Of a stretch of DNA of 64,000 nucleotides, positions 41,514 to 45,037 are shown in pieces (position 1 is the stretch's first letter; each line of letters opens with the position of its first letter). A program made the translations under genes and the position numbers. The DNA lies in the NCBI RefSeq assembly GCF_044324875.1, contig NZ_CP172185.1; one strand, written 5' to 3'. This DNA is from Escherichia coli (GTDB lineage Bacteria > Pseudomonadota > Gammaproteobacteria > Enterobacterales > Enterobacteriaceae). Under the pieces are notes generated by a model. The model saw only the letters and a list, made by a program, of their open reading frames with translations, made no database searches and had not been told where the DNA came from.

Positions 41514-43163
41514 TTAACCGCGCCACGCTTTATAGCGGTTAATCAGACCATTGGTCGAGCTATCGTGGCTGCTGATTTCTTTATCATCTTTCAGCTCTGG
41601 CAGAATACGGTTCGCCAGTTGTTTACCCAGCTCCACGCCCCACTGGTCGAAGGTGAAGATGTTCAGAATCACGCCCTGAGTAAAGATTTTGTGCTCATAC
41701 AGCGCAATCAACGCACCCAGGCTGAACGGAGTGATTTCGCGCAGCAGGATGGAGTTGGTCGGGCGGTTACCTTCGAACACTTTGAACGGCACCACGTAGT
41801 CAAGCGTTGCCGGATCTTTACCCTGATCACGATATTCCTGCTCAACCACTTCGCGGGATTTACCAAACGCCAGCGCTTCGGTCTGAGCAAAGAAGTTAGA
41901 CAGCAGTTTCTGGTGATGATCAGAGAGCGGGTTATGGGTGATAGCCGGGGCGATGAAATCGCACGGTACCATTTTGGTTCCCTGGTGGATCAGCTGGTAG
42001 AACGCGTGCTGACCGTTAGTGCCTGGTTCACCCCAGATAATCGGGCCAGTCTGGTAATTCACGACGTTACCGTTACGGTCAACGTACTTACCGTTGGACT
42101 CCATATTGCCCTGCTGGAAGTACGCCGCGAAACGGTGCATATACTGGTCATACGGCAGAATCGCTTCAGTTTCCGCGCCAAAGAAATTGTTGTACCAGAT
42201 GCCAATCAGCGCCAGTAGTACAGGCAGGTTTTTCTCGGCAGGCGTGGTGGAGAAATGCTTGTCCATCGCGTGTGCGCCAGAAAGCAGTTCAACGAAGTTA
42301 TCAAAGCCGATGGAGAGAACAATCGACAGGCCAATCGCTGACCACAAAGAGTAACGGCCGCCAACCCAGTCCCAGAACTCGAACATGTTGGCAGTATCAA
42401 TACCAAACTCGCCAACGGCTTTGGCATTGGTTGAGAGCGCCGCAAAGTGTTTTGCAACGTGTTTTTCATCACCTGCCGCTTTCAGGAACCAGTCACGCGC
42501 GCTATGGGCGTTGGTCATAGTTTCCTGAGTGGTGAAGGTTTTAGAGGCTACCAGGAACAGCGTGGTTTCCGGGTTTACTTTTTTCAGCACTTCCGCGATG
42601 TGAGTCCCATCGACGTTAGAAACAAAGTGCATGTTCAGGTGATTTTTGTACGGACGCAGTGCTTCGGTCACCATGTACGGGCCGAGGTCAGAACCACCGA
42701 TCCCGATGTTCACTACGTCAGTGATTGCTTTGCCGGTATAACCCTTCCACTCACCGGAAATAATCGCTTCCGAGAAGGTTTTCATCTTCTCCAGCACCGC
42801 GTTGACTTCTGGCATTACGTCTTTGCCATCAACCAGAATCGGGGTATTGCTACGGTTACGCAGCGCTACGTGCAGCACGGCGCGGTTTTCAGTGCGGTTG
42901 ATCTTCTCGCCAGAGAACATCGACTTAATCGCGCCCGCCAGATCGCACTCTTTCGCCAGATCTTGTAATTTCGCCAGCGTCTCTTCAGTGATGCGGTTTT
43001 TGGAGTAATCCACCAGCATCTGATCGTCGAAGGTTGCGGAGAACTTAGAAAAACGATCGCCGTCTTTAGCAAAAAGATCGGCGATCGTAACGTCTTTCAT
43101 TTCATCGAAGTGTTTCTGTAGTGCCTGCCAGGCAGCGGTCTGCGTTGGATTGATGTTTTTCAT
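41514..43163 (-). CDS. pgi: Glucose-6-phosphate isomerase (track ORF extends to 43169 by an alternative start)
   Basis: Translation [63 protein letters not shown]... gives 549 aa. Confidence 0.98.
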
Positions 43164-43399
43164 TAGCAATACTCTTCTGATTTTGAGAATTGTGACTTTG
43201 GAAGATTGTAGCGCCAGTCACAGAAAAATGTGATGGTTTTAGTGCCGTTAGCGTAATGTTGAGTGTAAACCCTTAGCGCAGTGAAGCATTTATTAGCTGA
43301 ACTACTGACCGCCAGGAGTGGATGAAAAATCCGCATGACCCCATCGTTGACAACCGCCCCGCTCACCCTTTATTTATAAATGTACTACCTGCGCTAGCG

Positions 43400-43625
43400 C
43401 AGGCCAGAAGAGGCGCGTTGCCCAAGTAACGGTGTTGGAGGAGCCAGTCCTGTGATAACACCTGAGGGGGTGCATCGCCGAGGTGATTGAACGGCTGGCC
43501 ACGTTCATCATCGGCTACAGGGGCTGAATCCCCTGGGTTGTCACCAGAAGCGTTCGCAGTCGGGCGTTTCGCAAGTGGTGGAGCACTTCTGGGTGAAAAT
43601 AGTAGCGAAGTATCGCTCTGCGCCC
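43400..43625 (+). promoter_or_regulatory. Lysine riboswitch (L-box) in the lysC leader; boundaries approximate
   Basis: Long structured leader upstream of lysC with L-box-like elements (AGAGGCGC...TTGCC..., GGAGGAG, GAGGGG, ...CCAGAAG...); E. coli lysC is known to carry a lysine riboswitch. Confidence 0.6.
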
Positions 43626-43687
43626 ACCCGTCTTCCGCTCTTCCCTTGTGCCAAGGCTGAAAATGGATCCCCTGACACGAGGTAGTT

Positions 43688-45037
43688 ATGTCTGAAATTG
43701 TTGTCTCCAAATTTGGCGGTACCAGCGTAGCTGATTTTGACGCCATGAACCGCAGCGCTGATATTGTGCTTTCTGATGCCAACGTACGTTTAGTTGTTCT
43801 CTCGGCTTCTGCTGGTATCACTAATCTGCTGGTCGCTTTAGCTGAAGGACTGGAACCTGGCGAGCGATTCGAAAAACTCGACGCAATCCGCAATATCCAG
43901 TTTGCCATTCTGGAACGTCTGCGTTACCCGAACGTTATCCGTGAAGAGATTGAACGTCTGCTGGAGAACATTACTGTTCTGGCAGAAGCGGCGGCGCTGG
44001 CAACGTCTCCGGCGCTGACAGATGAACTGGTCAGCCACGGCGAGCTGATGTCGACCCTGCTGTTTGTCGAAATCCTGCGCGAACGCGATGTTCAGGCACA
44101 GTGGTTTGATGTACGTAAAGTGATGCGTACCAACGACCGATTTGGTCGTGCAGAGCCAGATGTAGCCGCGCTGGCGGAACTGGCCGCGCTGCAGCTGCTC
44201 CCACGCCTCAATGAAGGCTTAGTGATCACCCAGGGATTTATCGGTAGCGAAAATAAAGGTCGGACAACGACGCTTGGCCGTGGAGGCAGCGATTATACGG
44301 CAGCCTTGCTGGCGGAGGCTTTACACGCATCTCGTGTTGATATCTGGACCGACGTCCCGGGCATCTACACCACCGATCCACGCGTGGTTTCCGCAGCAAA
44401 ACGCATTGATGAAATCGCGTTTGCCGAAGCGGCAGAGATGGCAACTTTTGGTGCAAAAGTACTGCATCCGGCAACGTTGCTACCCGCAGTACGTAGCGAT
44501 ATCCCGGTCTTTGTTGGCTCCAGCAAAGACCCACGCGCAGGTGGTACGCTGGTGTGCAATAAAACTGAAAATCCGCCGCTATTCCGCGCGCTGGCGCTTC
44601 GTCGCAATCAGACTCTGCTCACTTTGCACAGCCTGAATATGCTGCATTCTCGCGGTTTCCTCGCGGAAGTTTTCGGCATCCTCGCGCGGCATAATATTTC
44701 GGTAGACTTAATCACCACGTCAGAAGTGAGCGTGGCATTAACCCTTGATACCACCGGTTCAACCTCCACTGGCGATACCTTGCTGACGCAATCTCTGCTG
44801 ATGGAGCTGTCTGCACTATGCCGGGTAGAAGTGGAGGAAGGTCTGGCGCTGGTCGCGTTGATTGGCAATGACCTGTCAAAAGCCTGCGGCGTTGGCAAAG
44901 AGGTATTCGGCGTACTGGAACCGTTCAACATTCGCATGATTTGTTACGGCGCATCCAGCCATAACCTGTGCTTCCTGGTGCCCGGCGAAGATGCCGAGCA
45001 GGTGGTGCAAAAACTGCATTTTAATTTGTTTGAGTAA
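43688..45037 (+). CDS. lysC: Lysine-sensitive aspartokinase III
   Basis: 449-aa translation MSEIVVSKFGGTSVADFDAMNRSADIVLSDANVRLVVLSASAGITNLLVALAEG... Confidence 0.98.
   Translation: MSEIVVSKFGGTSVADFDAMNRSADIVLSDANVRLVVLSASAGITNLLVALAEGLEPGERFEKLDAIRNIQFAILERLRYPNVIREEIERLLENITVLAEAAALATSPALTDELVSHGELMSTLLFVEILRERDVQAQWFDVRKVMRTNDRFGRAEPDVAALAELAALQLLPRLNEGLVITQGFIGSENKGRTTTLGRGGSDYTAALLAEALHASRVDIWTDVPGIYTTDPRVVSAAKRIDEIAFAEAAEMATFGAKVLHPATLLPAVRSDIPVFVGSSKDPRAGGTLVCNKTENPPLFRALALRRNQTLLTLHSLNMLHSRGFLAEVFGILARHNISVDLITTSEVSVALTLDTTGSTSTGDTLLTQSLLMELSALCRVEVEEGLALVALIGNDLSKACGVGKEVFGVLEPFNIRMICYGASSHNLCFLVPGEDAEQVVQKLHFNLFE

Follow-up and report, generated by a model that had tools for sequence, protein, structure and literature searches.

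The region described here lies between pgi and lysC in the window, by which we mean the whole stretch of 64,000 nucleotides of Escherichia coli DNA that was analysed. The two genes are divergent and are separated by 524 nt of intergenic sequence, counted from the pgi ATG (position 43163, minus strand) to the lysC ATG (position 43688), in agreement with the "about 500 nt" of the original prediction, which had been made from the sequence letters and had placed a lysine riboswitch in the lysC leader. The product of lysC, the regulated gene, is named "lysine-sensitive aspartokinase 3" in RefSeq and shows a Pfam AA_kinase match (1.4e-46) and ACT domains; the neighbouring pgi lies outside the switch. 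In the gap just past the 3' end of pgi, on the strand opposite to that gene, Rfam recognises the enterobacterial sRNA STnc430 (RF02053; 41357-41505, plus strand; 86.1 bits, gathering score 47), and elsewhere in the window it recognises the nucleoid-associated noncoding RNA naRNA4/CssrE (RF02564; 29524-29594, minus strand; 76.1 bits, gathering score 59.5). The features of the lysC leader and of its surroundings are listed in Table 1.

Table 1. Features of the pgi-lysC region (positions in the window; leader numbering counted from the inferred transcription start).
Feature	Position	Strand	Basis or remark
lysC CDS, lysine-sensitive aspartokinase III, regulated gene	43688-45037	+	ORF, Pfam, RefSeq
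pgi, glucose-6-phosphate isomerase, divergent neighbour	41514-43163	-	ORF, RefSeq
Probable -35 hexamer of the lysC promoter, TTGACA	43347-43352	+	Sequence; conserved in orthologs
Probable weak -10 element, TATTTA	43371-43376	+	Sequence; 18 nt after the -35
Transcription start, +1 of the leader numbering	43382	+	Inferred from published numbering
5' leader hairpin, CCUGCG-CUAG-CGCAGG, abutting P1, outside RF00168	43388-43403	+	MFE folds; orthologs
Lysine riboswitch aptamer, five-way junction P1-P5	43400-43596	+	RF00168, RefSeq, covariation
P1, 5' strand, CCAGAAG (+23 to +29)	43404-43410	+	cmscan structure line; pairs with 43586-43592
P1, 3' strand, CUUCUGG (+205 to +211), switching sequence common to P1 and the anti-P1 helix	43586-43592	+	
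Loop L2 half of the kissing interaction, GCCAG	43443-43447	+	Complementary to 43495-43499
Loop L3 half of the kissing interaction, CUGGC	43495-43499	+	Complementary to 43443-43447
Anti-P1/antisequester helix (ON), 5' half (+190 to +214)	43571-43595	+	Whole-leader MFE; orthologs
Anti-P1/antisequester helix, 3' half (+244 to +268)	43625-43649	+	Whole-leader MFE; orthologs
C-rich, G-poor stretch matching the published rut (+231 to +270)	43612-43651	+	C 50%, G 17% in 30-nt windows
RNase E Site1, UCUU (+250 to +253)	43631-43634	+	Positions of PMC10946432 mapped with +1 = 43382
Candidate SD-sequestering helix, 5' strand, CCUUGUGCCAAGG (+263 to +275)	43644-43656	+	11 of 13 positions pair with 43670-43682
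Candidate SD-sequestering helix, 3' strand, CCCUGACACGAGG (+289 to +301)	43670-43682	+	Includes the SD GAGG, 43679-43682
Mechanical ORF over the leader, 181 aa, antisense	43363-43908	-	
Mechanical ORF over the leader	43374-43511	-	
Mechanical ORF over the leader, 57 aa, TTG start	43487-43660	+	
Mechanical ORF over the leader	43541-43678	-	

The leader carries a match to the Lysine family of Rfam (RF00168) that scores 99.5 bits, over threefold the gathering score (30), at an E-value of 9.6e-27, and that is untruncated, covering model positions 1 to 182 out of 182. It was the single match in a scan of positions 42500-44500 run with an E-value threshold, was returned identically by a scan of the whole 64-kb window at the gathering threshold, and is the sole RNA family match in the pgi-lysC intergenic region. 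RefSeq carries a "riboswitch" feature on the identical 197 nt. The 3' end of the aptamer lies 92 nt upstream of the lysC ATG, and aptamer and gene are on the same strand. We put the probability that positions 43400-43596 (plus strand) are the aptamer of the E. coli lysC lysine riboswitch, and positions 43597-43690 its expression platform, at about 0.97. The identity and the architecture of the aptamer are direct results of this analysis.

This riboswitch is already known: RefSeq annotates it, Rfam has a curated family for it, and it has been dissected by experiment. It was reportedly treated also by Caron et al. in 2012 (PNAS 109:E3444). The original prediction had called the E. coli lysC leader an established lysine riboswitch, and the mechanism of this exact element is indeed the subject of PMC10946432, PMC5499598 and PMC5584792. 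As to its extent, the prediction had given 43400-43625, of which the start is exactly the first base of the aptamer, while the end falls 29 nt past the aptamer, inside the platform. The functional switch, that is aptamer plus platform, is to be read as approximately 43400-43690, or as running from the inferred transcription start at about 43382 to the SD and ATG at 43679-43690. The value of the exercise is in the first place one of quality control, in that a call made from the letters had the 5' end right to the base and that the functional element has to be extended to the SD and the ATG.

For the comparative part of the work we searched one genome per species with a pattern made of three aptamer core motifs written as DNA, which gave at least 120 loci. 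By tblastn with the LysC of the window, a lysC ortholog was found just downstream in about 60 of these among the matches listed. Alignment A1 was composed of the window and the leaders of 45 Enterobacterales lysC genes whose products share 73-90% identity with LysC of the window. When the Rfam structure was laid on the 45 orthologs, 92% of the cells held standard pairs, as compared with 43-49% in slid controls. Changes on both sides of a pair were present in 23 of the 52 aptamer pairs and added up to 216 cells against 75 expected, and none of 500 shuffles reached the observed values. The bulk of this covariation resides in P2b and P3. P1 and P5 are uninformative in this respect because they are nearly invariant in the orthologs; P1 is paired in 100% of the cells of the 45 orthologs and its sequence hardly changes.

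The kissing interaction between loops L2 and L3 covaries as well, the outer pair occurring in the orthologs as GC, AU or UA and the inner pair as GC, AU or CG. Of its cells 91.7% are paired (10-49% in slid controls), changes on both sides occur in 24 cells against 7.6 expected, and the covariation score was reached by 0 of 500 shuffles. According to PMC3082890, this contact is a defining tertiary contact of the lysine riboswitch class. The sequences AGAGGCGCG, CGCCGAGG, UGUCACC and GGUGG, together with GGCUGAAUCC of loop L4, are invariant or nearly so in all 46 sequences, an invariance that is partly due to selection, in that three motifs were in the search pattern, with L4, GGUGG and the helices outside it. 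The junction core and the L4 loop are required for the lysine pocket and for the P2-L4 contact. Direct and selective binding of L-lysine by the lysC leader RNA has been reported, in work cited in PMC10946432.

Several of the aligned leaders (L048, L034, L112, L054, L069, L044, L075 and L113) carry insertions of about 20-130 nt inside the P5 loop (columns 185-323 of A1), some of which begin alike with GGCGTTGC and look like a repeated element. In others the loop of the candidate SD-covering helix contains a variable hairpin (columns 425-502 of A1).

These length differences bear also on the open reading frames over the leader, four of which are of at least 40 aa and which the original prediction had regarded as spurious. 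If the leader coded for a small protein or a leader peptide (for example the 57 aa frame at 43487-43660 or the 181 aa frame at 43363-43908), the RNA family match would be incidental, and frames of 45-181 aa are indeed present across the leader on both strands. However, the two longest ORFs found no match in a Pfam search and the RefSeq annotation has no CDS in the leader. Moreover, the ortholog leaders range in length from 280 to 421 nt and have insertions of many lengths inside the ORFs, in the loops of P5 and of the sequester helix alike, and their substitutions compensate each other within RNA helices, which is the pattern of a structured RNA and not that of a coding frame. The missing families and annotation, the variable-length insertions and the RNA-compensatory substitutions led us to reject a coding role, to which we give next to no credence; the ORFs can be dismissed, and the riboswitch remains the reading of the leader.

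Upstream of the aptamer, positions 43347-43376 (plus strand) are likely to be the lysC promoter, with a -35 of consensus sequence and a poor -10. The hexamer TTGACA is found at the equivalent position in most of the 45 Enterobacterales lysC upstream regions, and a TATTyn motif keeps its spacing in the orthologs, 17-18 nt after TTGACA and at a constant distance from P1. The promoter was missed by a simple consensus scan because its -10 is weak, and its assignment, a probable one, is based on conservation across species and on the published numbering. In the latter the G of the lysC AUG is G309 (PMC10946432), and therefore +1 falls at 43382. This position is consistent with the published rut at about +240, which falls into the C-rich segment +231 to +270, and with the RNase E site Site1 at +250 to +253, which reads UCUU.

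Between this start and P1 a short hairpin is present, whose stem is a perfect helix of 6 bp. A hairpin ending at most 1 nt from P1 is found in about 42 of 46 Enterobacterales lysC leaders with differing stem sequences, examples being CUUGCGCA/UGCGCAAG, CUUAUACGA/UCGUGUAAG, AUUCCC/GGGAAU and CUCACGCG/CGCGUGAG, and the mean MFE is -10.6 kcal/mol as compared with -5.5 kcal/mol in shuffles. The hairpin could tentatively be viewed as an accessory with a function in the lysC switch of enterobacteria, for instance as a 5'-terminal stem shielding the transcript from 5'-end-dependent RNase E attack in the ON state or as a stacking partner of P1 that adjusts the sensitivity to lysine, a proposal that we consider possible and rather doubtful; a protective 5'-end stem and stacking on P1 are guesses as to its role. 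No specific description of such a hairpin next to P1 of E. coli lysC came up in a literature search with limited coverage of subscription papers, which is a weak negative.

The expression platform was approached by folding and by comparison. The unconstrained MFE structure of the leader (+1 to +327; -127.1 kcal/mol) is devoid of P1, and in it the segment +190 to +214, which holds the 3' strands of P5 and P1, pairs with +244 to +268. Enforcing P1 gives -114.3 kcal/mol, that is a cost of approximately 13 kcal/mol. The anti-P1 helix of the MFE structure agrees with the anti-P1/antisequester stem that has been published for the ON state. Its upper part is paired in 96% of the cells of the orthologs, with changes that are one-sided only. 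The candidate helix over the SD is paired in 90.6% of the cells of the orthologs, against 28-53% in slid controls; for the two platform helices together the slid controls span 28-62%.

The segment CUGACACGAGG is almost invariant in the 45 Enterobacterales and there are almost no both-side changes in either platform helix, so that, both strands being nearly invariant, these helices show no covariation and what speaks for them is conserved pairing potential. This conserved potential of both helices is an observation of the present work. Invariance of this kind is what would be expected of segments that have to pair with two alternative partners, and it constitutes weaker evidence than covariation; for the platform segments that are invariant across Enterobacterales the comparative set offers this modest account.

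Accessibility of the SD was estimated with a crude calculation, in which for OFF only the sequence after P1 was allowed to fold and for ON the 3' strands of P5 and P1 were left free. Over the orthologs the mean probability of the SD being unpaired was 0.10 in OFF and 0.30 in ON, and ON exceeded OFF in 40 of the 45 leaders (Wilcoxon p = 5e-8). For the E. coli sequence by itself the value varies with the 3' end of the folded segment: a boundary at ATG+5 yields 0.17 in OFF and 0.07 in ON, and one at +330 yields about 0.5 for either state, with no clean separation of ON and OFF. In the E. coli folds, the proposed platform helices face competition from alternative registers and from pairing with the first part of the coding region. 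Folding of the single E. coli sequence leaves the states unseparated and was set aside as support, and only the trend across orthologs was used. Because the E. coli prediction is not clean, we treat the individual pairs of the platform helices, in ON as in OFF, as inferred, and those in Table 1 are to be taken as candidates.

The same part of the leader includes the C-rich, G-poor stretch, whose composition is directly observed and which coincides with the rut reported at about +240 (PMC10946432). The segment with Site1 overlaps +244 to +268, the 3' half of the anti-P1 helix of the MFE structure, and would accordingly be double-stranded in the predicted ON fold.

In the published description of the switch the leader adopts, without lysine, an ON conformation that permits translation and in which the anti-P1 stem hides the RNase E sites. 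Lysine brings about formation of P1 and sequestration of the SD; RNase E cuts the sites that have become exposed, and Rho is loaded at the C-rich rut that overlaps them (PMC10946432). With Rho and NusG, termination takes place at G309 and further inside the ORF (PMC10946432), and by ChIP lysC has a Rho termination score of 6.1 (PMC5499598). PMC5584792 reports this arrangement to be conserved among the Enterobacterales and to occur widely in Gammaproteobacteria. What is said here of lysine dependence, of cleavage by RNase E and of termination by Rho is taken from this literature, and the results of our sequence analysis appear consistent with every step of the published mechanism that can be examined computationally.

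A different mode of control would be that of a Bacillus-type switch, in which lysine allows an intrinsic terminator hairpin to form and control is purely by transcription attenuation. The aptamer family is common to the window and to the lysC L-box of B. subtilis, which PMC3082890 describes as a transcription attenuator. Nevertheless, a scan for intrinsic terminators on the plus strand of positions 43597-43688 found none, there being no stem with a U-run in this interval; the sole nearby match is on the minus strand, at 43617-43604. The conserved blocks of the platform end in the SD (CUGACACGAGG) and not in a U-tract. The published work describes SD sequestration, RNase E cleavage and termination that is Rho-dependent rather than intrinsic (PMC10946432), and in vitro no lysine-dependent terminated product was seen without Rho (Fig. 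2B of PMC10946432). An intrinsic terminator, which is very unlikely, was rejected on the lack of a terminator on the plus strand of the leader and on the published Rho dependence, and SD sequestration with RNase E and Rho is retained as the mechanism. The minus strand match corresponds to a platform hairpin, AGCGAAGUAUCGCU (43604-43617), which when read on that strand is a terminator-like stem followed by a T-run, and which on the plus strand is without a U-run; this terminator-like site is probably incidental.

Placed on the window, the mechanism would work as follows. As long as lysine is absent, +190 to +214 (P5 and P1, 3' strands) would pair with +244 to +268, which would bury the C-rich rut and RNase E region. 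The anti-P1 helix would at the same time occupy the segment that otherwise pairs with the Shine-Dalgarno sequence, and lysC would therefore be translated. Binding of lysine to the five-way junction would lock P1 (43404-43410 with 43586-43592) and thereby release +244 to +268. CCUUGUGCCAAGG would then be free to pair with CCCUGACACGAGG and to cover the SD, and the freed, single-stranded C/U-rich segment would become accessible to RNase E, at Site1, and to Rho, which would terminate at the start codon and within the ORF.

Comparison with known systems places the element of the window next to three other riboswitches or groups of riboswitches. The lysC riboswitch of E. coli K-12 (RF00168; Ghosh et al. 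2024, RNA 30:381, PMC10946432) is the same locus with effectively the same sequence: the G309 of the AUG, the rut at about +240 and the UCUU of Site1 at +250 to +253 coincide with the window and no difference was detected. The lysC L-box of B. subtilis (PMC3082890) resembles the window in aptamer family, five-way junction, L2-L3 kissing contact, conserved L4 and aspartokinase target, whereas its platform is an intrinsic terminator/antiterminator instead of the SD sequestration, RNase E and Rho of E. coli lysC. The thiC and ribB riboswitches of E. coli (PMC5234074 and PMC5499598) are, like lysC, translational, with a C-rich rut that is exposed in the ligand-bound state and with termination near the start codon in each case. 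In thiC and ribB Rho loading is under direct control, and the ligands and the aptamer folds are different (TPP and FMN), while lysC has in addition a reported direct RNase E site that overlaps the rut.

Within E. coli the region is highly conserved. The 651 bases at positions 43100-43750 are present in 5425 of 5426 complete genomes, with at least 99% identity in 5420 of the 5425 and 100% in several strains. A natural variant is found in the blood isolate E. coli EECO1006 (NZ_CP090319.1, locus L122), in which an IS1 element was noted at positions 798-1664 of the locus. The insertion site corresponds approximately to 43600-43610 of the window, some 10 nt beyond the aptamer's 3' end, between the aptamer and the lysC SD. 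From its position, this IS1 should uncouple lysine sensing from lysC expression, and together with the 5' hairpin the insertion constitutes a cheap experimental lead.
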